From Anaerolineae bacterium (lineage in GTDB: Bacteria; Chloroflexota; Anaerolineae; B4-G1; DUEL01): DNA of 64,000 bases. The DNA lies in NCBI GenBank assembly GCA_041082215.1, contig JBDOIF010000091.1, positions 9,841-73,840 of the forward strand. The letters are read 5' to 3'. The translations under genes were made by a program, and so were the position numbers. Shown in pieces: positions 5,147 to 15,073 of the stretch; position 1 is the first letter of the stretch; every line of letters starts with the position of its first letter. The notes under the pieces are model-generated. The model was not told the DNA's origin, ran no database searches, and worked only from the letters and a program-made list of their open reading frames with translations.

Positions 5147-5929
5147 CTATACTTGTTCCAGCATAACCAGTACACCGAACCGGCCGGTCCGCCCCCTCTC
5201 GGCCCGGTGGGAGAACCACTCGTCGGTGTGACAGGCGGTGCAGAGACCGGCGCGTTCCACCTGCTTTACCCCCGCTGCCGCAAGCTGGGCCTCCACCGCT
5301 CCGGGCAGGTCCAGGTAGAGGCTCCCATCCCGTCGTTCGATCACCTCCGCTCCCTCCGGGCAGACGGCGGTCACCGCCCCCGCTACCTCCGGCCCGACCT
5401 GGTAGCAGCAGGGGCCGATGGTCGGGCCGATGCCGGCCCATAGTTCCGCGGGAGAGCTGCCGGCGTGGCGGGCAAAGGCCGCCACCGCTGCCGGAACGAC
5501 CCCGTTGACCACCCCCCGCCAGCCAGCATGGACCAGCCCCACCGCCCGGTGGATCGGGTCGAAGAGGAGGAGCGGGACGCAGTCGGCGAAGCGGAAGAGG
5601 AGAGCGACGCCAGGGGTGGTGGTGAGCAGCCCATCGGTAGCCGGCTGGACTGTGCCAACGTGGGCCTCTCCGACCAGCCGCACGCTGGCACTGTGAACCT
5701 GGTAGGGGCTGACGACCTGGTCACGGTGGATGTTCAGGGCGGAGAAGACCCGGCGGTGGTTTTCCTCGACCGCAGCCAGATCATCCCCCACCGTGTGGCC
5801 CAGGTTCAGGGTGGCAAATGCCCCCCGGCTCACCCCCCCCTGGCGGGTGAGCACGGCTTGCATCACCCCCGCCCCCTCCAGCCCATCGAACCGGTAGAGA
5901 GCGATGCCGTCAACGACTTCCCGGCGCAT
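5147..5929 (-). CDS. pgeF: PgeF/YfiH purine nucleoside phosphorylase / peptidoglycan editing factor
   Basis: QVHS, ADCVP, HAGWRG, GPTIGPCCY, WFSHR motifs. Confidence 0.92.
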   Translation of the reverse strand: MRREVVDGIALYRFDGLEGAGVMQAVLTRQGGVSRGAFATLNLGHTVGDDLAAVEENHRRVFSALNIHRDQVVSPYQVHSASVRLVGEAHVGTVQPATDGLLTTTPGVALLFRFADCVPLLLFDPIHRAVGLVHAGWRGVVNGVVPAAVAAFARHAGSSPAELWAGIGPTIGPCCYQVGPEVAGAVTAVCPEGAEVIERRDGSLYLDLPGAVEAQLAAAGVKQVERAGLCTACHTDEWFSHRAERGRTGRFGVLVMLEQV

Positions 5930-5981
5930 CGGTCCTCAATTATGCCCCGAGAGGTCATTCTGCGCAAGTCCCCAGGGCCTG

Positions 5982-7070
5982 CTAAAGCGTAGGACAACTC
6001 CTGTGGAGTTGTCCTACGCTGCAAGCGATGCGCCGGTCGGTGACGGACATCGGCAGCCCGTCCAGCTCCTCCGGGGCCACCCAACGGACCTCGGCGCAGT
6101 CCAGGCAGTGCGGCTCCCCGGCCCGTAAACGGCAGAGAAACACATAGAGGGTGATGCGGAAGTGGGTGTAGGCATGCTCCAGCGTGAGGAGCGGTTCTCC
6201 CACCTCTACCTGAATCCCCAGCTCCTCCTGTAACTCCCGGGCCAGGCATTCCGGGAGGGTTTCCCCCGCCTCCCGTTTGCCGCCGGGGAACTCCCACAGG
6301 CCGCCCAGGAAATCGTCTGCGTTCCGGCGGGCTACCAGTACCCGCCCATCCTCCCGCAGGAGCACACCGGCAGTCACATCGTAGTGGGGGATGGACCGGC
6401 GTCGGGAGGGGGTGGGCAGCTCCCCCTGGCGTCCCTCTCGGCGGGCCTGGCAACCGTCGGACAGGGGGCAGCGGCCGCAATGGGGGGCGCGGGGCAGACA
6501 GACTGTAGCCCCCAGTTCCATCAGCGCCTCGTTGAACGCGCCGGGCCGGTCCGGGGGGAGGAGGGAGCGAGCCAGCTCTTCCAGCCTGCGGCGGGTGGGC
6601 CCACGGCGGATGTCCCCCTCCACGGCGAAGAGCCGGGACAACACGCGGCGGCTGTTGCCGTCCAGAGCGACGACGGGGCGGCCAAAGGCGATGGAGGCGA
6701 CCGCGCCGGCGGTGTAGGGGCCGAACCCCGGCAGGGCCAGCAGCCCCTCGCAGGTATCCGGCAGATGGCCCCCGTGCTCCGCCATTACCCGACGGGCGGC
6801 GGCGTGGAGATGACGGGCGCGGGTGTAATAGCCCAGCCCCTCCCAGACCCTCAACACTTCCTCCAGCGGAGCCTCCGCCAGGGCCTTCAGGGTGGGAAAA
6901 CGGGCCAGAAACCGCTCGTAGTACGGGATAACGGTCTCTACCCGGGTCTGCTGGAGCATCACCTCGGCCACCCAGACCCGATAGGGGGTCCGGTCCTGTC
7001 GCCAGGGGAGGCGACGGGCCTCGTGGGCAAACCAGTTCAGCAGCCGGTCGGTCAGGGGAAATGGTTTCAT
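5982..7070 (-). CDS. mutY: A/G-specific adenine glycosylase MutY with C-terminal NUDIX-like domain
   Basis: LPWR, VWVAEVMLQQT, WEGLGYY, HhH LPGFGPYTA, Fe-S motif CLPRAPHCGRCPLSDGC, LWEFPGGK. Confidence 0.95.
   Translation of the reverse strand: MKPFPLTDRLLNWFAHEARRLPWRQDRTPYRVWVAEVMLQQTRVETVIPYYERFLARFPTLKALAEAPLEEVLRVWEGLGYYTRARHLHAAARRVMAEHGGHLPDTCEGLLALPGFGPYTAGAVASIAFGRPVVALDGNSRRVLSRLFAVEGDIRRGPTRRRLEELARSLLPPDRPGAFNEALMELGATVCLPRAPHCGRCPLSDGCQARREGRQGELPTPSRRRSIPHYDVTAGVLLREDGRVLVARRNADDFLGGLWEFPGGKREAGETLPECLARELQEELGIQVEVGEPLLTLEHAYTHFRITLYVFLCRLRAGEPHCLDCAEVRWVAPEELDGLPMSVTDRRIACSVGQLHRSCPTL
5989..6017. repeat. GTAG-type REP palindrome inside the mutY 3' end
   Basis: GTAGGACAACTC-ctgtg-GAGTTGTCCTAC; near-identical copy at 20288-20315. 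Confidence 0.8.
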
Positions 7071-7098
7071 CAGTCAATGATACCACGAAAGCCTGGAT

Positions 7099-7127
7099 TT
7101 GCCTATTTTGGCCAGGTGTGGTAAAAT
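7099..7127 (+). promoter_or_regulatory. sigma70-type promoter of csp-RRM
   Basis: TTGCCT-17 nt-TAAAAT with an extended -10 TG. Confidence 0.7.
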
Positions 7128-7163
7128 ATTATTGCAGGACGAAGTAGGTTTGGTCGTATGTCG

Positions 7164-7203
7164 AAGACTGCCCAGACTTGCGGAGACTGGGCGGTCTTTT
7201 TTT
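7164..7203 (+). terminator. Intrinsic terminator-like hairpin within the csp 5' leader
   Basis: AGACTGCCCAG-loop-CTGGGCGGTCT followed by a T-run; lies between the promoter and the csp start. Confidence 0.65.
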
Positions 7204-7252
7204 CTGCCCGTACCGCTTCACCTGCAATCAAGAAAGTTAAGGAGCAAAGAAA

Positions 7253-7462
7253 GTGACCGAAAGAGAGACCGGAACCGTCAAGTGGTTCAACGACGCAAAG
7301 GGGTATGGCTTCATTTCCCGTGATGCTGGAGAGGACGTCTTCGTCCATTTCTCGGCGATCGCAGGGGATGGATTCCGCTCATTGCGCGAGAACCAGCGGG
7401 TTGAGTTTAGCGTCGAACGAGGGCCTAAGGGATTGCAGGCCGTCAACGTGCGGGCTCTGTAA
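7253..7462 (+). CDS. csp: Cold-shock protein
   Basis: [24 protein letters not shown]. Confidence 0.97.
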
Positions 7463-7507
7463 ATGGATGTGGCCCAGGGGCCGCATCTGAAAGGAACAGT
7501 TGGAAGA

Positions 7508-7795
7508 ATGCCGAAGAAATTGTACGTGGGCAATCTGAGTTATGGGACCACCAATGCCGATCTGTCCGAGCTTTTCGGGGAGGTTGGGGAGGTGCTGTCG
7601 GTGGACCTCGTCACGGATCGGATGACGGGCCGCTCCAAGGGCTTTGCCTTTGTCGAGATGGCGGAGCACGATGCGGCGATGAAGGCCATTGACCAGCTCA
7701 ACGGTCGGGATGTGGACGGGCGAGCCATCAAGGTGGCGGAGGCACGTCCCAAGCAGGACAACCGGGGCGGGGGCGGACGACGCAACCGCTGGTAG
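7508..7795 (+). CDS. RRM-domain RNA-binding protein
   Basis: KLYVGNL (RNP2), SKGFAFVEM (RNP1), Gly/Arg tail. Confidence 0.95.
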   Translation: MPKKLYVGNLSYGTTNADLSELFGEVGEVLSVDLVTDRMTGRSKGFAFVEMAEHDAAMKAIDQLNGRDVDGRAIKVAEARPKQDNRGGGGRRNRW

Positions 7796-7820
7796 AAGTG
7801 GCCTGACCGGATTGGAGCAG

Positions 7821-7862
7821 ACGGCCGCACGGTTTCTCCGCAGACCGTGCGGCCGTTTTTTT
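7821..7862 (+). terminator. Rho-independent terminator of csp-RRM
   Basis: ACGGCCGCACGGT-loop-ACCGTGCGGCCGT followed by a T-run. Confidence 0.85.
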
Positions 7863-7883
7863 CGTGCCGTTCGCCCTCATTCG

Positions 7884-8080
7884 TGAAGTGTATTTCAGTC
7901 TAGGGGCGGGATGTCCCTGGCCCGGGCCGGACCTGGGGAAACACGAATGGCGCGAATGGAAACGAATACCGCGAATGAAGCAGGTATCCCTACTGTTCGC
8001 TGTATTCGGGCCATTCGTGGGATTCGCGATCCACCGGCGAGCGGGAGGACCACTCGCCCCGAAATTGAAATACGCCCTCA
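7884..8080. mobile_element. MITE-like non-coding element with ~33-bp imperfect terminal inverted repeats
   Basis: Left end tgaagtgtatttcagtctaggggcgggatgtcc matches the reverse complement of the right end, tgagggcgtatttcaatttcggggcgagtggtcc; internal CGAAT and ATTCG periodic arms. Confidence 0.5.
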
Positions 8081-8094
8081 TTCGCGTACCTGGT

Positions 8095-8145
8095 TTGACG
8101 CCAGAGGCCATCCGTATTATAATTTTATAATGTCAACAGTTGACA
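8095..8145 (+). promoter_or_regulatory. sigma70 promoter plus palindromic GntR/FadR-type operator
   Basis: TTGACG(8095)-17 nt-TATAAT(8118); palindrome TGTCAACAGTTGACA at 8131-8145, at the predicted transcription start. Confidence 0.75.
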
Positions 8146-8178
8146 ATTCACCTCACAGCTATTGACCTTGCCGGTGCT

Positions 8179-8853
8179 ATGATCAAAGTGCCCCGTCTCA
8201 AACGGAGCAACCTGCGGGAAGAGATCGTCCGCCTCATCGAAAACGCCCTCCTGGCAGGAGAACTCCGCCCCGGCGACCGGCTGGTGGAATCCGCCCTGGC
8301 CGAGAAGGCCGGCATCAGCCGCGGACCGGTCCGGGAGGCGATCCTCCAACTGGTGGGCGAGGGGATTCTGGTCAATATCCCGTTTCGGGGGACCTTTGTC
8401 GCGCGCTGGGCGCCGCAGCAGGTGGAGGAAGCGTACACCCTCCGCGCCGTCCTCGAACGGCTTGCTGTTCAGGAGGCTATCAAGCACATCACTGCGGAAC
8501 ACATCGCTCAGCTTCAGGCGACGGTAGACGAGATGGACCGCTGTGCGCAGAAGGGGGCGGTGCGGGCGCTGGTCCGTCTGGATATCCAGTTTCACGAGCA
8601 GCTCTACGCCCTTTCCTGCCATTCTCTCCTTCAGGAAGTTCTGGCCCGCCTTCGCCGACGGTTATACTGCCTGATGGCCGTGGATGAAGGATACGATCTC
8701 CACCGGGATGAGATCGCCGCCGACCATCAGCGGATCGTGGATGCGTTGAAGACGGGAAACGCAGCGGTTGCTGCGGAGGCGATCACCGATCACGTCCTGG
8801 CCGTCGGTGCAGAGGTGGCCGAGCAGATGCGACGGGAGGAGGAAGGGGGATGA
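8179..8853 (+). CDS. GntR (FadR/FCD) family transcriptional regulator
   Basis: LRPGDRLVESALA...ISRGPVREA winged HTH; FCD domain DIQFH...DHQRIV. Confidence 0.92.
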   Translation: MIKVPRLKRSNLREEIVRLIENALLAGELRPGDRLVESALAEKAGISRGPVREAILQLVGEGILVNIPFRGTFVARWAPQQVEEAYTLRAVLERLAVQEAIKHITAEHIAQLQATVDEMDRCAQKGAVRALVRLDIQFHEQLYALSCHSLLQEVLARLRRRLYCLMAVDEGYDLHRDEIAADHQRIVDALKTGNAAVAAEAITDHVLAVGAEVAEQMRREEEGG

Positions 8854-10154
8854 GGACCGAACAGGAGGTCGAACTGCCCTACGGGGCCGGGGCGGTCCGG
8901 GTCCGCCTCCCCCGGGCCAACCTGCTTGGCGTCTATCTCCCCTCCCCTCCTCCGGCGTGCACCGACCCGGCGGCGGAGATCGCGCGCGCCCTTGCCCGGC
9001 CATTGGATACCCCTCCTCTTTCGGAGATCGTCCGCCCTCACGAAACTGTCATCGTCCTGGTTGACGACCACACACGGGCCACACCGGCAGCCCTCATCCT
9101 GCCCCAGGTCGTCGAGGAACTCCGCCGGGGCGGCGTGCGGGACCAGGACGTGACCATCCTGATCACCCACGGCACCCACCGGCTCAGCACCGGGGAGGAG
9201 GTGCGGCATAAAGTCGGCGAGGCGATCTACAACTCGTTTCGTATCCTCCAGCACGACTGCACCGACGAAAAGGCCCACGTCTATGTCGGCCTGACCAGCC
9301 GGGGTACGCCGGTCTGGGTCAACCGGCGGGTGGTTGAGGCAGACCGCCGCGTCGGCATCGGCCATATCGGCCCCAGCCCCTACGCAGGCTACTCCGGCGG
9401 GGGCAAGCTGATCCTTCCCGGCGTGGCCTCGCTGGATACCATCAACGCCAACCACAGCCTGGTCCCTCTGGGCTTCCGACAGGCTGGCCGCGTTGACCTG
9501 CCCTGCCGGCTGGACCTGGAGGAGGCAGCCCGGATGGTGGGAATGGATTTTGTGCTGGACGTGGTCCTCGGCCGGGAGGAACGGCTGGTGCGGGCCTTTG
9601 CCGGCAGCGCCGACCGGGTCTTCCGCGAGGGGGTGGAGCTGGCCCGTCGGGTCTATGAAGTCGCCTGTGAAGGGGAGGTGGATGTTGCCATCACCGCCGC
9701 TTACCCGTACGACCAGGACCTCTATCAGGCGGTGCGGGCTGTGGAATACGCCGATGGGATCGTGCGCCAGGGAGGGAGCATCCTGCTGGTGGCGGCCTGT
9801 CCGGATGGGGTGGGGGGGGATGACTTCTTCCGCCTGATGGCCGACGACACCAGGCCCCCCGACGCCTACCTGCGGGATATGGTCCGGCGGGATGGGTTGG
9901 TGACCTTTGCGGTACTTGGGTATAACCTGGCGCGGATCAAGGCGGAGAAGGAGCTGTATATCTTCACCGAGGGGATCCCCGCTCCGGCGCTGGAGGCGAT
10001 GGGCTTTCGCCCTTTGCCCTCTCTCCAGACCGGGGTGGAAAAGTTGCTGGGGGTTCACGGCGAAGGGGTGAGGATCGCTGTCTTTCCTGAGGGTTCGTCC
10101 ACCATCCCCGTCTGCCGTCCCCTGGCCTGCGGGAAGGGAGACTCCGTTCAGTAG
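8850..10154 (+). CDS. LarA-family nickel-pincer-dependent enzyme with an atypical active site
   Basis: DDHTR, GTHR, HDC, AGYSGGGKLILPG, NANHS and LYQAV motifs of the LarA superfamily. Confidence 0.88.
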   Translation: MRTEQEVELPYGAGAVRVRLPRANLLGVYLPSPPPACTDPAAEIARALARPLDTPPLSEIVRPHETVIVLVDDHTRATPAALILPQVVEELRRGGVRDQDVTILITHGTHRLSTGEEVRHKVGEAIYNSFRILQHDCTDEKAHVYVGLTSRGTPVWVNRRVVEADRRVGIGHIGPSPYAGYSGGGKLILPGVASLDTINANHSLVPLGFRQAGRVDLPCRLDLEEAARMVGMDFVLDVVLGREERLVRAFAGSADRVFREGVELARRVYEVACEGEVDVAITAAYPYDQDLYQAVRAVEYADGIVRQGGSILLVAACPDGVGGDDFFRLMADDTRPPDAYLRDMVRRDGLVTFAVLGYNLARIKAEKELYIFTEGIPAPALEAMGFRPLPSLQTGVEKLLGVHGEGVRIAVFPEGSSTIPVCRPLACGKGDSVQ

Positions 10155-10179
10155 AATACACAGGAAAGGAGGTACTGAG

Positions 10180-10962
10180 ATGGGAGAGAAGGTCAGCAAG
10201 GGCCCGCGGAGTCGGATCGGCGGGGCTTCGATCGCGTGGGTCACGCTCTACGGGGCCCTGTGCGGGGTGACAGGGCTGGTGCCCATCTTCCCCTACGTCG
10301 GCGGCGGCGGCTACGTCCCTCTGACCACACCGTTCTGCGCCATCGCCCCGCTGCTGCTGGGTCCGTGGGGGGGAGTGGTTGCCGCCATCGTCGGGGGGAT
10401 CATCGGCATGTTCATCGCCCCGGCGGCCTACCCCCTCCAGGTCGTGGACGTGTTCCTCAACGCAGTGCTCCCCGCCCTCTTTGTGACCCTGATGATTCGG
10501 GATGACCGCCTGTGGAAGGTCACCGTGCCCCTCTTTATCGTCATCGGGATCATCGGCTGGCTGGTGCCCTTCTACGTCCCGGGCGCGGCGGCGGGCTTTG
10601 GCAAGGTGCCGGAGCCGCTCTACTTTCTGATGGCCGCTCTCTACTGGGTTCCCTCGACGGTCATCGCTGCCACGCCGCTGGGCACCCGGCTCATCCCCCA
10701 GTGGGTGCGCAGCAAGAACCGCGGCCAGCGGTACGGCGGCGTCTTCCTGGCCATCCTGGCCGCCATGTTCGTCTGGTGGCTGCCCTGGACCCGACCTTAT
10801 TGGTATCTGTTCAACTTCTCCGCCGAGCTGGGCGTCGCCACCCACGTCGCCTACTCCTGGTGGGTCCCTGCGCTCTCGGCGATCACCGCCGTCATCACCA
10901 TCCCCATTGTCGAGGCGCTGGAGCGGAGCGGCCTGCCCAAGATTGAAGGGGCGATCTGGTAG
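10180..10962 (+). CDS. ECF transporter substrate-specific (S) component, substrate unknown
   Basis: Multi-TM protein with LLLGPWGG...GGIIG, directly upstream of the ECF A and T genes. Confidence 0.7.
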   Translation: MGEKVSKGPRSRIGGASIAWVTLYGALCGVTGLVPIFPYVGGGGYVPLTTPFCAIAPLLLGPWGGVVAAIVGGIIGMFIAPAAYPLQVVDVFLNAVLPALFVTLMIRDDRLWKVTVPLFIVIGIIGWLVPFYVPGAAAGFGKVPEPLYFLMAALYWVPSTVIAATPLGTRLIPQWVRSKNRGQRYGGVFLAILAAMFVWWLPWTRPYWYLFNFSAELGVATHVAYSWWVPALSAITAVITIPIVEALERSGLPKIEGAIW

Positions 10963-11024
10963 CCTTTGTGAGCGGGGCTTTCCCTTCCCGCGGATCCCCA
11001 ATTACAGGACACGGTGAAAGATCA

Positions 11025-12800
11025 ATGGCAGATGAGCCGTTGATTCGACTGGAGAACGTGACCTTTACCTACGAGGGAGATGTCGTCGCCCTGCGCAACC
11101 TGAACCTCACCGCGCGCCGGGGGGAGTTCGTGGTTGTGCTGGGGGCCAACGGGGCAGGCAAGTCCACCCTGTGCTATCTGATCAGCGGCATCGTCCCCCA
11201 CATCTACGGCGGCCGACGGCGCGGCGAGGTGCGCGTGGCCGGGCTGGACCCGTGGGATGAGCCGCTGTATGTGACCGCTCAGCACTGCGGGGTGTTGATG
11301 CAGGACCCCGAGGTCCAGTTGTTCATGCCCACCCTCCGGGCAGAGCTGGCCTTCGGCCCGGCCAACCTCGGCGTGGCCCGCGAGGAGATCCTCCGCCGCT
11401 CGCGGGAAGTGCTGACCCTGGTCCGGCTGGAGGGGCTGGAGGAGCACAACCCCCGCGACCTCTCCGGCGGGCAGAAACAGCGGGCCGCCCTGGCCTCCGT
11501 CCTGACCATGGAGCCTCAGGTCCTGATCCTGGATGAGCCGACCTCGCAGCTCGACCCGCTGGGCCGCTGGGAGGTCGGGGAGACGATCGAGCAGCTCAAG
11601 CGGCAGGGCGAGATCACGATCGTCATGACCACCCACGAGACGGAGGAGGTGCTGCATCTGGCGGACCAGGTGCTGGTGCTGGATCAGGGGGAGACGGTGC
11701 TCCAGGGGACGCCTGCCGAGGTCTTTTCCCGGCCGGACCGGCTGGAGCAGGTGGGGGTCAAGACCCCCGTCCTGATCGCCGTGCGGTCGAAGCTCCTGCC
11801 GGACGGGGGCCGGAGGGGTGATCGGCCCCCAAAGGGGCTGGCCGGCCTCACCCCGCCTGGAGTAGCGCGGGAGGTCCAGGAGGCGGTCGCTGCTGGCCGG
11901 CTGGCGGTGCGGCCCGGGGAGCTCCCCCAGCCTCAACCGGTCCCCGCCGATGCCCCTGTCGTCCTGGAGACCCGCGACCTGACGGTGGAGTATCCAGGCC
12001 CACCCCGGGTGGTCGCCCTCCGGGACGTGAATCTCCAGATCCGTCGTGGGGAGTTCGTCGGCGTGGTGGGGCAGAACGGATCGGGCAAGAGCACGCTGGT
12101 CAAGTGCTTCGTCGGCCTTCTTCGACCCAGGACGGGTAAGGTGCTTTTCCACGGCGAGGACATCCGCCGCCTCTCGGTGGGTGAGATCGCCCGCCGCATC
12201 GGGCTGGTCCTCCAGAACCCCGACTATCAGCTCTTCACCGCCTCCTGCCGCGATGAGATCCGGTTCGGCCTGCAAAACGTCGGCATCCCGCCGGACGAGA
12301 TCGAGGAACGGGTCGAAGAGGCGTTGCGCCTGGTGGGCCTCCAGGAGCAGGCGGATTTGTTCCCCTTCCGCCTCTCCTTTGGGGACCGGCGGAAGCTGGC
12401 CGTGGCGGCCACCATCGCTCTGGGGCCTGAGGTGCTTATTCTGGACGAACCGACGACGGCCCAGGACCATCGGGGGCGATACCAGTTGGCCGAGCTGGCC
12501 CGCCGCTTCCACAAGGAGCAGGAAGGCACAGTACTGATGATCACCCACGACGTGGACCTGATCGCCCGTTACGCCCATCGCCTGATCGTCCTCCACCAGG
12601 GCCGCGTCCTCCTCGACGGCCCTACGGCGGAGGTCTTCTCCCAGGTCGAGGAGCTGAAAAAGAGTTTCGTGGTCCCGCCGGTGGCCGCGCAACTGGCCTG
12701 GGAACTGGCCGGGTTGGGCATCCCCCCCTATGTGATGACCCTTGAGGAGCTCTGCCAGGTGCTTGTCCCAGCCGGGCAGGCCGGACAGGGGGTGGCCTGA
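11025..12800 (+). CDS. ECF transporter fused double ATPase (EcfAA')
   Basis: Two ABC domains (GANGAGKST, LSGGQKQR; GQNGSGKST, LSFGDRR) with QDPE/QNPD Q-loops typical of EcfA. Confidence 0.92.
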   Translation: MADEPLIRLENVTFTYEGDVVALRNLNLTARRGEFVVVLGANGAGKSTLCYLISGIVPHIYGGRRRGEVRVAGLDPWDEPLYVTAQHCGVLMQDPEVQLFMPTLRAELAFGPANLGVAREEILRRSREVLTLVRLEGLEEHNPRDLSGGQKQRAALASVLTMEPQVLILDEPTSQLDPLGRWEVGETIEQLKRQGEITIVMTTHETEEVLHLADQVLVLDQGETVLQGTPAEVFSRPDRLEQVGVKTPVLIAVRSKLLPDGGRRGDRPPKGLAGLTPPGVAREVQEAVAAGRLAVRPGELPQPQPVPADAPVVLETRDLTVEYPGPPRVVALRDVNLQIRRGEFVGVVGQNGSGKSTLVKCFVGLLRPRTGKVLFHGEDIRRLSVGEIARRIGLVLQNPDYQLFTASCRDEIRFGLQNVGIPPDEIEERVEEALRLVGLQEQADLFPFRLSFGDRRKLAVAATIALGPEVLILDEPTTAQDHRGRYQLAELARRFHKEQEGTVLMITHDVDLIARYAHRLIVLHQGRVLLDGPTAEVFSQVEELKKSFVVPPVAAQLAWELAGLGIPPYVMTLEELCQVLVPAGQAGQGVA

Positions 12801-13609
12801 TGCAACCTGTATTCCGGTACTTCCGCGCCGATACGCCCATCCACCGGTTGCACCCGCTGGTGAAGCTGGCCTACGTCCTGCTGACCCTCGTTCTGGTGAT
12901 GTACCCCATCCGGGAGACCGACATGCCGGTCCTTCTGATCTGGCTGGGGTTTTCGGCACTCCTCTGGGCGGTGGGCCGGATCGAGGTGCGCCGGTTCGCG
13001 ACGTTGCTGAAAATTCTGGTCGGCACGTTTATCTTCCTGATCCTGATTCAGGGGTTCACCTACCGCTTCGGGGAGACCCCCCTGATCGTCCTCGGCCACC
13101 TCCGTCTGTGGGAGGCGGACCTGGGGGTGATCACGAAGGAGGGGGTGTGGTTCGGGCTGGTGCTCAGCGTCCGCATCCTGGCAGCCACCTCGGCGTTGCC
13201 GCTGTTTGTGATGACGACGCCGACCTCGGCCATCATGACGGCGATGGGCCGGCTCCGGGTCCCCCGCACGCTGACGTTCATGTTCGTCAGCGCCCTCTCC
13301 TTCACCACTCTCCTGTTCGAGATGTGGGGTTCCATTGTGGATGCCCAGAAGCTGCGGGCCTTCGATATTGACCGGATGAACCTTTTCAAGCGGGCCTTCA
13401 GAGCCTACATCCCGATCATCACCCCGCTCATTCTCCTCCTGTTCCGCAAAGCGAACGACTTTCAGATCGCGATGGAGACCAAGGGCTTCGGCGCGCCGGT
13501 CGAGCCGACGGAGATCGAGGTGCTGACCGCCCGCCCGGCCGACTACCTCTGGCTGGCCCTCATCGTGGCGGTCTTCGCCGGATGCACGTTTTTGAAGTTC
13601 GCCGCTTAG
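12800..13609 (+). CDS. ecfT: ECF transporter transmembrane T component
   Basis: TPIHRLHPLVKL, AQKLRA and AMETKGF coupling motifs. Confidence 0.9.
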   Translation: MQPVFRYFRADTPIHRLHPLVKLAYVLLTLVLVMYPIRETDMPVLLIWLGFSALLWAVGRIEVRRFATLLKILVGTFIFLILIQGFTYRFGETPLIVLGHLRLWEADLGVITKEGVWFGLVLSVRILAATSALPLFVMTTPTSAIMTAMGRLRVPRTLTFMFVSALSFTTLLFEMWGSIVDAQKLRAFDIDRMNLFKRAFRAYIPIITPLILLLFRKANDFQIAMETKGFGAPVEPTEIEVLTARPADYLWLALIVAVFAGCTFLKFAA

Positions 13610-13638
13610 CAGGGGTGTGTGTTTGCGACAAATGAAAA

Positions 13639-13705
13639 ACCGCAGAGGCACAGAGGGCACGGAGAAAGCCCCAGAAGCTCCACGAAACTCTATGCCCTCT
13701 GTGGT
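13639..13705. repeat. 9-nt periodic palindromic repeat (CACAGAG/CTCTGTG type)
   Basis: accgcagaggcacagagggcacggaga...ctctatgccctctgtggt; related copy at about 1600-1640. Confidence 0.6.
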
Positions 13706-13756
13706 CGGAGGCGACGAACTGTTAAGTCCCGATCATCAAGTTGAAGAGGAGCGCCA

Positions 13757-15073
13757 ATGGATGACCGACCCTTGTACAGCGAATTGATCGCTCGACTGTC
13801 CGATCTGCTGGCCCCGTGTCTGGCCCAGGACTGGCCCAACCTGCCGGTCGAACGGGCGGAGGGGGTGTACCTTTACGGCCCCGATGGTCGGCGGTATCTG
13901 GATTTCCTTTCCGGCTTCGGAGCCTGCAACGTGGGCCACAACCACCCGCGGGTGATGGAGGCAGCCCGCAGACAGATGGAGCGGATCGTCCATGCCCCCC
14001 TGGGGGTCCTTGCCCCGGAGACTACCCTCCGACTGGCCTGGGAACTGGGGAAGGTCACTCCTGAAGGGGCGGATATGTTCTTCTTCGGCAACAGCGGGGC
14101 GGAGGCAGTGGAGGGGGCGCTGAAACTGGCCCGGTATGTGACCGGCAGGCGGGGGGTGATCGCTTTCCTGGGCGGCTTCCACGGCCGGACAATGGGGGCC
14201 GCCTCCGTCACTTCCTCCAAAGTGAAGTACCGCAACGGCCACGGCCCTTTCCTCCCAGACATCTATTTTGCCCGTTTCCCATACCCTTACCGCTCTTCAA
14301 CACCCGATGCGGAAAGGTGCACTGCCGAGGCTCTGGAGGACATCGAGCGGCTTTTCGAATACGTCATCGCTCCCCAGGACGTGGCTGCCTTCCTCGTTGA
14401 GCCGGTGCAGGGGGAAGGGGGGTATGTTATCCCGCCGCGGGAGTGGCTCCTGGCCCTTCGCCGCATCGCCGACGAGCACGGCATCCTGCTCATCTTCGAC
14501 GAGGTTCAGACCGGCTTCGGCCGTACAGGCCAGTGGTTCGCCGCCCAGACCTTCGGCGTCGAACCCGACATCCTCTGCCTGGCCAAGGGGATCGCCAACG
14601 GCTTCCCGCTGGGAGCCACCGCAGCCCGGCGGGACCTGATGGGGAGGTGGGGAGCCGCCTCCCACGGCACGACCTACGGCGGCAGCCCTGTCTCCTGTGC
14701 TGCGGCGCTGGCGGTGCTGGAGGTCATCCGGGAGGAGGGGCTGCTGGAGAACGCGCGGGAGCAGGGAGCCTATATGCTCGGCGTCCTGCGGGACCTGCAG
14801 GCCCGCTCGCCCATTATGGGGGATGTGCGGGGCGTGGGGCTGATGATCGCTGTCGAGTTCATCCGTCCGGGGACGGATAAAGAACCGAATCCCGAGGCGG
14901 TCCGCCGCATCTTACAGCGGGCGCTGGAGGGGGGCCTCCTTCTGTACCCCTGCGGGCACTGGACACAGACCATACGTCTCATCCCGCCACTGACGGTGAC
15001 CCGGGAGCAGGTGGAGGAGGGGCTGGAGGTCTTCAGCCGGGCGGTGCTGGTCGAATCAGCAGGGCAGGCTTAA
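13757..15073 (+). CDS. Class III PLP aminotransferase (GabT-like)
   Basis: [40 protein letters not shown] (PLP Lys), HGTTYGG. Confidence 0.92.

Follow-up and report, generated by a model that had tools for sequence, protein, structure and literature searches.

A conserved Chloroflexota clade of LarA homologues with serine in place of the second catalytic histidine, encoded with an ECF importer and a class III aminotransferase

We asked what a homologue of the lactate racemase LarA does once one of its two catalytic histidines has been replaced, and why such an enzyme should be encoded with an importer and an aminotransferase. To our knowledge, every nickel-pincer enzyme that has been characterised is a reversible racemase or epimerase with two catalytic histidines, and their single-His relatives are an acknowledged open question, none having a known reaction. 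The locus that raises the question lies in a 64,000-nucleotide stretch of an Anaerolineae genome (Chloroflexota; GenBank assembly GCA_041082215.1, contig JBDOIF010000091.1, forward-strand positions 9,841 to 73,840), referred to here as the window. It is an operon of the order gntR, larA-like, ecfS, ecfAA', ecfT and aminotransferase, in which the ecf genes encode an energy-coupling factor (ECF) importer. A preliminary description, made from the sequence without database searches, had noted this arrangement together with a promoter and an operator, all of which we found as described, and had proposed that the LarA homologue catalyses a different reaction. The conserved gene, its purifying selection, the invariant serine and the dedicated importer and aminotransferase bear out that description; a chemistry that differs from racemisation or epimerisation, in contrast, was not established.

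Residues were mapped by HMMER alignment to solved LarA enzymes, the alignments being gap-free across the active-site segments. The query segment GIGHIGPSPYAGYSGGGK aligns with ELHYKAGYSGGHK of the malate racemase Mar2 and EPHLMAGYSGGRK of Isosphaera pallida LarA (LarA_Ip), and the query motif YQAVR aligns with YQAQK (Mar2) and YQAVK (LarA_Ip). This confirms both substitutions of the preliminary description: the position of His174 (Lactobacillus plantarum numbering) is occupied by Ser176, codon 9375-9377, and that of Lys298 by Arg296. The residues said to be retained are likewise present, with Asp73, Arg76, Lys186 and the nickel ligand His202 matching all four cofactor residues (Asp72, Arg75, Lys184 and His200) and His110 matching the first catalytic histidine, His108; Tyr292 and Gln293 are also kept. 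The query additionally carries three histidines that are specific to its clade, His74, His107 and His172. The protein scored below every equivalog cut-off for the LarA family in NCBIfam (LarA, 313 bits against 460; LarAH5, 300 against 462; LarAH6 Mar, 354 against 500; LarAH10, 282 against 540; LarAH14/15/16, 83 against 740; LarAH18, 27 against 500).

The protein has the Lar_N plus LarA_C architecture, and its AlphaFold2 model (predicted local distance difference test score, pLDDT, 96.4) has the LarA fold, superposing on LarA_Ip 9EID with template-modelling (TM) scores of 0.89/0.91 and a root-mean-square deviation of 2.5 A, and on L. plantarum LarA with a TM score of 0.88. It thus shares with the canonical enzymes (L. 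plantarum 5HUQ, I. pallida 9EIA/9EID and Mar2 6D6Z) a two-domain fold (TM 0.88-0.91, 31-36% identity), the cofactor residues, the first catalytic histidine and the Tyr-Gln pair of helix alpha11, but differs from them in the serine, the Lys298-to-Arg exchange, the three clade-specific histidines and an operon that includes an ECF importer and an aminotransferase. At the ends of model strands 67-72, 101-106 and 166-172, which also deliver Asp73/Arg76, His110 and Ser176, stand His74, His107 and His172, respectively. Because they stand at the ends of active-site strands, these three histidines probably line the same crevice as the active site. The pocket positions aligned to Leu174, Met175, Trp356 and Gln357 of LarA_Ip are the hydrophobic residues Pro177, Tyr178, Val355 and Leu356, the last two falling in a less certain region of the alignment.

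The serine is a fixed feature of a distinct clade. Among 5.8 billion proteins searched, 120 clusters were listed with 62-82% identity to the query, all belonging, where a taxon was named, to Anaerolineae or Chloroflexota. Ser176, Arg296 and His74 occur in 120/120 of these clusters, His107 in 118 and His172 in 108, with tyrosine in the remaining 12. Asp73, Arg76, Lys186 and His202 are invariant throughout, save for D73N in a single cluster, and so are the residues of the substrate clamp in all 120. Since the cofactor residues are invariant, the enzyme is very probably dependent on nickel-pincer nucleotide (NPN) as its cofactor. A library of representatives at 50% identity contained two full-length members of the clade, the next sequence having 38% identity. 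In a comparison set of 145 other LarA homologues, histidine occupies the 174 position in 135 and arginine the 298 position in 12, and a two-His paralogue in this genome also has arginine at the latter. The Lys298-to-Arg exchange is thus not unusual among LarA homologues.

In a FastTree phylogeny of 173 sequences, the Ser clade, with its more distant members L047, L048 and L055 (53-55% identity), was monophyletic (support 1.0) on a stem of length 0.56; further homologues that have no second histidine stand on branches nearby. (Here and below, L and G numbers denote individual loci and genomes.) The ratio of nonsynonymous to synonymous substitution rates (dN/dS) of the gene was 0.16 against the closest relative, G001, 0.24 against G017 and 0.18 against G015, and the other five genes of the operon gave values of 0.07-0.16. 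Given the presence of Ser176 and Arg296 in 120/120 clusters, the monophyly of the clade, the dN/dS of 0.16 and the kept synteny described below, the gene is under purifying selection and is not decaying. Of the two signs of a relic that had been envisaged at the outset, absence of the cofactor genes larB, larC and larE and decay of the gene, we found the first but not the second.

To describe the genomic setting of the clade, 32 Ser-clade loci from species-representative genomes were retrieved with the LarA homologue as query. The S gene lies directly downstream in 25 of the 29 loci in which this could be tested, the aminotransferase gene lies within 7.5 kb downstream in 10/14, and gntR lies upstream in 13/26. 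Across the operon the LarA homologue is the least conserved product among orthologues, at 65-82% identity compared with 83-93% for the S component. Four loci have no S gene (L024, in genome G011, and L055, L047 and L048). At L055, an amino-acid ATP-binding cassette (ABC) system of the Liv type takes the place of the ECF genes; next come the genes for the LarA homologue, for the aminotransferase (57% identity) and for a regulator of the YheO type, which is also found at L088. L047 and L048 are neighboured by a class I/II aminotransferase, a major facilitator superfamily carrier, a GntR/FCD regulator, sugar-type oxidoreductases and amidohydrolases. Upstream genes of the loci without gntR were heterogeneous and followed no general pattern.

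Two of these loci deserve a separate mention. On contig C175 of G011 (L023/L024), the three transporter genes are gone except for a 48-residue remnant of the T component, and the LarA homologue has alterations in motifs that are otherwise invariant (DNHTR, IAHGTHR, GPSDY and YQGTR). At the gntR-less locus L040 (positions 5391-9914, genome G023), subunits of a class I fumarase and a 2-oxoacid:ferredoxin oxidoreductase are encoded directly upstream on the same strand.

The importer offers an independent view of the substrate. Its 260-residue membrane protein had no Pfam or NCBIfam match (E 0.001) and belongs to no named S family, its named homologues all being annotated as hypothetical. A Foldseek search of its AlphaFold2 model (pLDDT 93.3) against the PDB likewise gave no match at E <=0.001, with weak rows only. 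In an independent structural search with VIA-align, the top 15 matches were all ECF S components or related vitamin or metal uptake proteins (FolT, BioY, RibU, ThiT, PanT, CbiM/NikM and BtuM; Z 7.6-11.3, values that helical models can reach by arrangement alone), and the next, unrelated chain followed at Z 6.1. Because this S-component block stands apart and the gene adjoins those for the A and T components, we accept the protein as the S component of an unnamed family. The S, A/A' and T components are encoded together, as they are in dedicated ECF transporters of group I (for example BioMNY, CbiMNQO and the folate, riboflavin and thiamine systems), and the S model matches FolT, BioY, RibU, ThiT, PanT and CbiM at Z 8-11. 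Unlike them, the S component has about 260 residues, compared with about 160-210 in the matched chains, and no named family, and the two ATPases are fused.

We additionally scanned metagenomes using an alignment of S homologues of 50-62% identity, which yielded 80 loci. Where the S component has at least 70% identity to the query, the Ser clade is found alongside in 45 of 51 loci. At 50-69% identity, 7/23 loci carry LarA homologues of other clades (29-36% identity to the query), all of which keep the second histidine, and 4/23 carry the same aminotransferase family (57-58% identity). Below 50% identity, three of six loci have this aminotransferase family and one has a two-His LarA homologue. 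Taken together, S homologues of 36-62% identity occur with other LarA clades that keep both histidines and with the same aminotransferase family (56-58% identity), which at L114, L115, L139 and L140 accompanies the S family without any LarA homologue. Several of these distant modules encode enzymes that oxidise hydroxy acids: a GlcD-FeS-CCG fusion stands beside LarA, aminotransferase and S genes at L109, GlcD-like oxidases at L111 and L112 are accompanied by a class I/II aminotransferase and by a gene of the ornithine cyclodeaminase family, an NAD-dependent D-2-hydroxy-acid dehydrogenase is found at L123 and LutB/C-like proteins at L134. A class I/II aminotransferase replaces the class III enzyme at L111, L119 and L121. 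A single importer family is thus repeatedly accompanied by hydroxy-acid oxidising systems of three unrelated kinds and by aminotransferases of two unrelated classes, from which we infer that it serves a pathway from a 2-hydroxy acid through a 2-oxo acid to an amino acid, in which the LarA homologue would supply the right enantiomer.

Some distant loci have a flavour of their own. Two low-GC metagenome contigs encode S-AA'-T together with a two-His LarA homologue. On one, genes for IF-2B-family (MtnA-like) and RuBisCO-like proteins come next (L122:11376-14960); on the other, a class I/II aminotransferase and an MtnB-like class II aldolase are encoded alongside (L121:11380-15403). These neighbours hint at a link to methionine salvage. 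S homologues of 35-36% identity at L139 (3894-15064) and L137 occur with genes for saccharopine-dehydrogenase-like, ornithine carbamoyltransferase (OTCase), coenzyme A (CoA) ligase, short-chain dehydrogenase/reductase (SDR) and arginine deiminase (ADI)-like proteins, and L139 also has the same class III aminotransferase family at 56% identity. This pair has an arginine/ornithine or polyamine flavour.

The aminotransferase itself is a class III enzyme (PF00202), the lysine of its CLAKG motif aligning with the lysine that binds pyridoxal 5'-phosphate (PLP) in the FAKS motif of the gamma-aminobutyric acid (GABA) aminotransferase GabT. Its closest solved chains are the Ala/Ser racemase 9wqz (326 bits), PuuE 6wj8 (324 bits) and GabT 1sf2 (302 bits), and the wider group of relatives at 302-326 bits comprises the class III amino-acid racemases 9WQZ, the broad-specificity 9WRF and the isoleucine 2-epimerase 5WYA as well as GabT (1SF2) and PuuE (6WJ8). 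In the alignment with GabT, the Arg of HGRT, the QGEGG motif, the PLP lysine and the C-terminal Arg are matched, and the Arg/Glu substrate-switch residues line up. The protein nevertheless falls short of the GabT equivalog (TIGR00700, 392 bits against 506.65) and of the Leu/Met racemase model (308 against 800), and passes the cut-off of the broad NF005993 subfamily only. Its sequence is compatible with a transaminase or a racemase, and with an alpha- or an omega-amine.

Cofactor synthesis, in turn, is not encoded nearby. The absence of larB, larC and larE from the window, noted at the outset, extends to the whole 96.1%-complete assembly of 174 contigs, in which we found no LarC (PF01969), LarB (NF033503) or AIRC domain and a best LarE match of 32.8 bits against a cut-off of 150. 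Searches with tblastn using LarB, LarC and LarE of two relatives from the same family gave no real match in the assembly either, and the three genes were also not found in G001, which is 100% complete. The genome nonetheless carries three LarA homologues. In the seven genomes that carry a Ser-clade orthologue, by comparison, LarC and LarE are present in five. Among 31 genomes (G000-G030), clustered larB/C/E genes occur in 14 (LarC in 14, LarE in 14, AIRC in 13) and LarA homologues in 26, of which 12, including G001, have no LarC. In a class-wide sample, Lar_N was found in 151 and LarC in 109 of 201 genomes; comparison by hand gave 52 genomes with Lar_N and without LarC, 37 of them with Lar_N at E <=1e-49 and four of them single-contig. 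PMC11796402 discusses the opposite situation, in which about 15% of genomes have larBCE but no larA.

Two side observations belong here. One LarA paralogue of this genome (C16:15434-18195, equivalent to L143:6435-9196) passes the lactate-racemase cut-off (487 against 460 bits) and is directly followed by a GlcD-like FAD oxidase, which from sequence looks like a pair converting L-lactate to D-lactate and on to pyruvate. Three of the AIRC matches in the 13/31 genomes are PurE-like (134-142 bits) and the others lie beside larC; most of the lineage seems to lack a classical PurE.

Our preferred reading, which we hold tentatively, is of an enzyme that has retained proton-coupled hydride transfer on a 2-hydroxy acid but whose L-face relay is altered, which would make it D-biased or unidirectional. 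The operon would be a substrate-inducible unit of thermophilic Anaerolineae (Chloroflexota), with a GntR/FCD repressor sitting on a palindrome 3' of the -10 box, and would produce a dedicated ECF importer of an undescribed S family, a class III PLP enzyme resembling GABA aminotransferase and the LarA-superfamily enzyme. Judging from its context, the module would scavenge a small 2-hydroxy carboxylic acid whose side chain is probably neutral or hydrophobic, and convert it by way of the 2-oxo acid to an amino acid. Within the enzyme, NPN would be held by Lys186, His202, Asp73 and Arg76, the substrate carboxylate and 2-OH would be clamped by Arg76, His110, Tyr292, Gln293 and Arg296 as in canonical racemases, and His110 would take the hydride on the D-face. 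On the L-face, where Ser176 replaces the base His174, perhaps backed by the clade-specific His172, the proton relay would be weaker, giving a D-biased or unidirectional racemase or epimerase rather than a freely reversible one. The Ser176/His172 relay is a conjecture suggested by the model. In LarA_Ip, the 2-OH of D-lactate bonds His107 and Tyr294, and its carboxylate bonds Arg, Gln295, Lys298 and both histidines (bioRxiv 10.1101/2024.11.28.625916). All of these residues are kept here except the second histidine, with arginine in place of lysine. For single-His enzymes in general, Gatreddi et al. 2025 (PMC12611868) argue that the second histidine serves L-substrates, so that enzymes without it may process D-substrates only, and propose D-only, unidirectional conversion in their section 2.5.

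Several points weigh against this reading. The deep placement of the clade is weakly supported (0.25-0.66), and descent from a module-associated two-His ancestor is unsupported by the tree. Serine is a poor general base, and we know of no member of the clade with known activity, substrate or cofactor loading. Both this genome and G001 have no larB, larC or larE. None of the Ser-clade operons examined has a dehydrogenase inside the operon, leaving the needed oxidation step unaccounted for. Finally, the closest relatives of the aminotransferase include the omega-aminotransferases GabT and PuuE, and an omega-amine substrate is equally compatible with its sequence.

The alternative closest to the original proposal is a new nickel-pincer chemistry, in which a D-2-hydroxy acid would be oxidised with the help of the D-face base only and the hydride passed elsewhere, either within the molecule, to an adjacent carbonyl (redox isomerase), or to a second 2-oxo acid (2-hydroxyacid:2-oxoacid transhydrogenase), for example the 2-oxoglutarate that the aminotransferase releases, so that a hydroxy acid would become an amino acid without a separate dehydrogenase. 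We consider this unlikely. The invariant serine and the long stem branch suggest a change of function, and a one-face mechanism needs one base only, but the full substrate clamp of canonical racemases is kept. The clade has, moreover, gained His172, in most of its members, together with His74 and His107 at the ends of active-site strands, and in the model one of these could stand in for the lost base. The sister modules at L109, L111, L112, L123 and L134 carry a 2-hydroxy-acid dehydrogenase, whereas Ser-clade operons have only the LarA homologue, importer and aminotransferase; a dehydrogenase could, however, be encoded elsewhere, as exemplified by the GlcD-like oxidase after the LarA paralogue on C16. 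The aminotransferase keeps GabT-like residues for Glu and 2-oxoglutarate, yet the net product of the transhydrogenase version would be 2-hydroxyglutarate, with no obvious benefit. Hydride transfer to an adjacent site was raised for single-His homologues by Desguin et al. 2020 (PMC7583248), but no NPN enzyme is known to release its oxo intermediate. The argument for a different reaction is further weakened by the homologous S/aminotransferase modules: because these use a two-His LarA, often beside a 2-hydroxy-acid dehydrogenase, the role of LarA in the module looks like ordinary racemisation. Both the hydride-transfer notion and single-His LarA homologues had also already appeared in print (PMC7583248, PMC12611868). 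The most far-reaching version, in which the Ser176 clade would be a non-racemising, stereospecific hydride shuttle (a D-2-hydroxyacid:2-oxoacid transhydrogenase or an internal redox isomerase) that makes amino acids from scavenged 2-hydroxy acids with the aminotransferase and without a dehydrogenase, in this genome on nickel-pincer cofactor obtained from the community, strikes us as decidedly speculative and improbable.

It is also improbable, in our estimate, that the operon serves the catabolism of omega-amino-2-hydroxy acids, such as GABA or ornithine analogues with a 2-hydroxy group, or isoserine, with the class III enzyme taking the distal amine and the LarA homologue setting or using the configuration at C2. 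GabT and PuuE are the nearest aminotransferases to the class III enzyme, which retains the HGRT Arg and the C-terminal Arg, but its closest solved chain is the alpha-amino-acid racemase 9wqz, and class I/II aminotransferases, whose substrates are alpha-amino and 2-oxo acids, substitute for it at L111, L119 and L121. Arginine- and ornithine-type genes near distant S homologues (the ADI-like, OTCase and saccharopine-dehydrogenase-like genes of L137 and L139, and the ornithine-cyclodeaminase-family gene of L111) and the YheO-type regulators of L055 and L088 would fit such substrates; the LarA pocket, however, is hydrophobic (Pro177, Tyr178, Val355 and Leu356) and has no acidic residue for an amine.

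A third alternative is that the ECF system imports nickel, the nickel-pincer cofactor or a precursor of it for the enzyme, which would explain LarA homologues without larBCE. ECF systems typically import cofactors and Ni/Co, and the lar cluster of L. plantarum includes an ECF-type nickel transporter. CbiM/NikM-type chains are among the structural matches of the S component (4m5c, Z 9.7; 5x3x, Z 8.1), but it has no CbiM or NikM family match. The operon is found in this genome and G001, which have no larB, larC or larE, yet four of the six transporter-bearing genomes (G015, G017, G018 and G023) have larC and larE. The S family, moreover, occurs with the aminotransferase in loci without a LarA homologue (L114, L115, L139 and L140), and at L055 the ECF genes are replaced by the Liv-type amino-acid ABC system. 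In a phylum-wide sample, an S homologue was present in only one of 300 other genomes (33% identity), although about half of the genomes of the class have no LarC; the ECF system therefore cannot serve most LarC-less genomes. We regard cofactor import as very unlikely.

That the LarA homologue is an inactive relic, decaying in a lineage that lost cofactor synthesis, is scarcely credible: neither this genome nor G001 yielded larBCE, no product of the operon is less conserved than the LarA homologue, and the G011 copy has lost its transporter and altered its motifs, but dN/dS is 0.16 between the two larBCE-less genomes themselves, the cofactor and clamp residues are invariant across the 120 clusters apart from the single D73N, the frames are intact and translationally coupled, and 5/7 carrier genomes have larC and larE.

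Enzymes without the second histidine have been catalogued before. According to section 2.1 of PMC12611868, only LarA groups 14, 15 and 17 lack it; groups 14 and 15 are listed there as being without His174 and group 17 as having Asn, with none characterised. The same paper reports cryo-EM structures (9Q2U, 9Q3J and 9Q3K) of two Asn-type enzymes, LarA_Bw and LarA_Sp, from a carbohydrate context. The Ser clade and these single-His groups have in common the loss of the L-face histidine and the retention of the cofactor residues and the first histidine. The Asn-type enzymes, however, are octamers of about 500-residue subunits with a remodelled active site, whereas in the Ser clade the canonical carboxylate clamp is retained, the residue is Ser instead of Asn, and the gene occurs with an importer and an aminotransferase. 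The two are also distant, the query matching LarA_Bw and LarA_Sp at 88-92 bits over the N-terminal half only, reaching 83 of 740 bits with the LarAH14/15/16 model and superposing more poorly on 9Q3K (TM 0.81/0.74), and it does not belong to their subfamily. A phrase search of Dataset S2 of Desguin et al. 2020 for Ser at the His174 column gave no match, though a few Ser-type enzymes may be among its 354 sequences; in that paper (PMC7583248), as far as the consulted parts go, the word aminotransferase appears only in the supplementary neighbourhood table, for group 9. The consulted passages of the main text of PMC11770544 make no mention of serine, aminotransferase or ECF, and a full-text literature search returned no paper linking LarA with an aminotransferase and an ECF transporter. 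Thus, while the single-His phenomenon is already known, the Ser clade with its canonical clamp, its importer, aminotransferase and GntR context, and the S family appear to be undescribed.

As a test case, the clade is cleaner than the Asn-type enzymes already in print. As the canonical substrate clamp is kept, the known LarA substrate panel and assays apply directly, and the importer, the aminotransferase and a repressor with a defined operator provide three independent handles on the substrate. The locus also ties an unnamed ECF S family to hydroxy-acid and amino-acid metabolism, and the many Anaerolineae that have LarA homologues without the cofactor pathway raise the possibility that the cofactor is shared in communities.

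The coordinates of the operon and its control elements are collected in Table 1. All six open reading frames run in one direction with intact frames (8179-15073); the gntR stop overlaps the start of the larA-like gene (ATGA, 8850-8853) and the ATPase stop overlaps the start of the T gene, and the operon is translationally coupled. For the fused ATPase, an alternative GTG start lies at 10968. ATG 8179 was taken as the start of gntR because its orthologues begin M-[IK]-K-V-P. The product belongs to the FadR/FCD subfamily of GntR regulators by its N-terminal winged helix, its C-terminal FCD domain and the palindromic operator that it is predicted to bind, and reached no NCBIfam equivalog at its cut-off.

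Table 1. Features of the operon, in coordinates of the window
Feature	Position	Strand	Details
Sigma-70-type promoter	8095..8123	+	TTGACG 8095-8100, 17 nt, TATAAT 8118-8123; 11/12 positions match
Operator palindrome TGTCAACAGTTGACA (presumed)	8129..8143	n/a	Perfect 7-1-7, just 3' of the -10 box
gntR, GntR-family regulator with FCD effector domain (FadR-type)	8179..8853	+	Pfam GntR 58 bits, FCD 81 bits
LarA-superfamily enzyme, Ser176 clade	8850..10154	+	Lar_N 218 bits, LarA_C 64 bits
ECF S component, 260-aa membrane protein	10180..10962	+	Structural matches and neighbouring A/T genes
Fused ECF ATPase (single-chain A and A')	11025..12800	+	TIGR04520 476.8 bits (cut-off 315), TIGR04521 456.8 bits (cut-off 330); two ABC_tran domains
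ECF T component	12800..13609	+	CbiQ PF02361, 93 bits
Class III PLP enzyme, GABA-aminotransferase/archaeal amino-acid racemase subgroup	13757..15073	+	Aminotran_3 435.8 bits; NF005993 584 bits (cut-off 574)

The control region is conserved as well. Orthologous upstream regions have a -35/-10 pair at the equivalent place, and a palindrome matching TGTCAACAGTTGACA with at most two mismatches lies within 250 nt 5' of gntR in 26 of 32 related loci, exactly in 11, again directly 3' of the -10 box. We presume it to be the site of the GntR/FCD repressor. Two weak hints of phosphonate genes in NCBIfam were dropped, phnR_burk reaching 124 bits against a cut-off of 271 and PbfA 290 against 525.

The operon DNA is present in hot-spring metagenomes. 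In the RNA library X8, short, low-depth contigs fell on all six genes and covered 17/30 bins, a weak hint of transcription in which a single transcript and DNA carry-over are not distinguishable. Upstream, the operon is bounded by a gene for a small RNA-binding protein of the RNA recognition motif (RRM) type at 7463-7795, followed by a strong terminator with a 17-bp stem at 7819-7858. Finally, a near-identical strain in the DNA run X2 carries two extra G at 8123-8124, between the -10 box and the operator.

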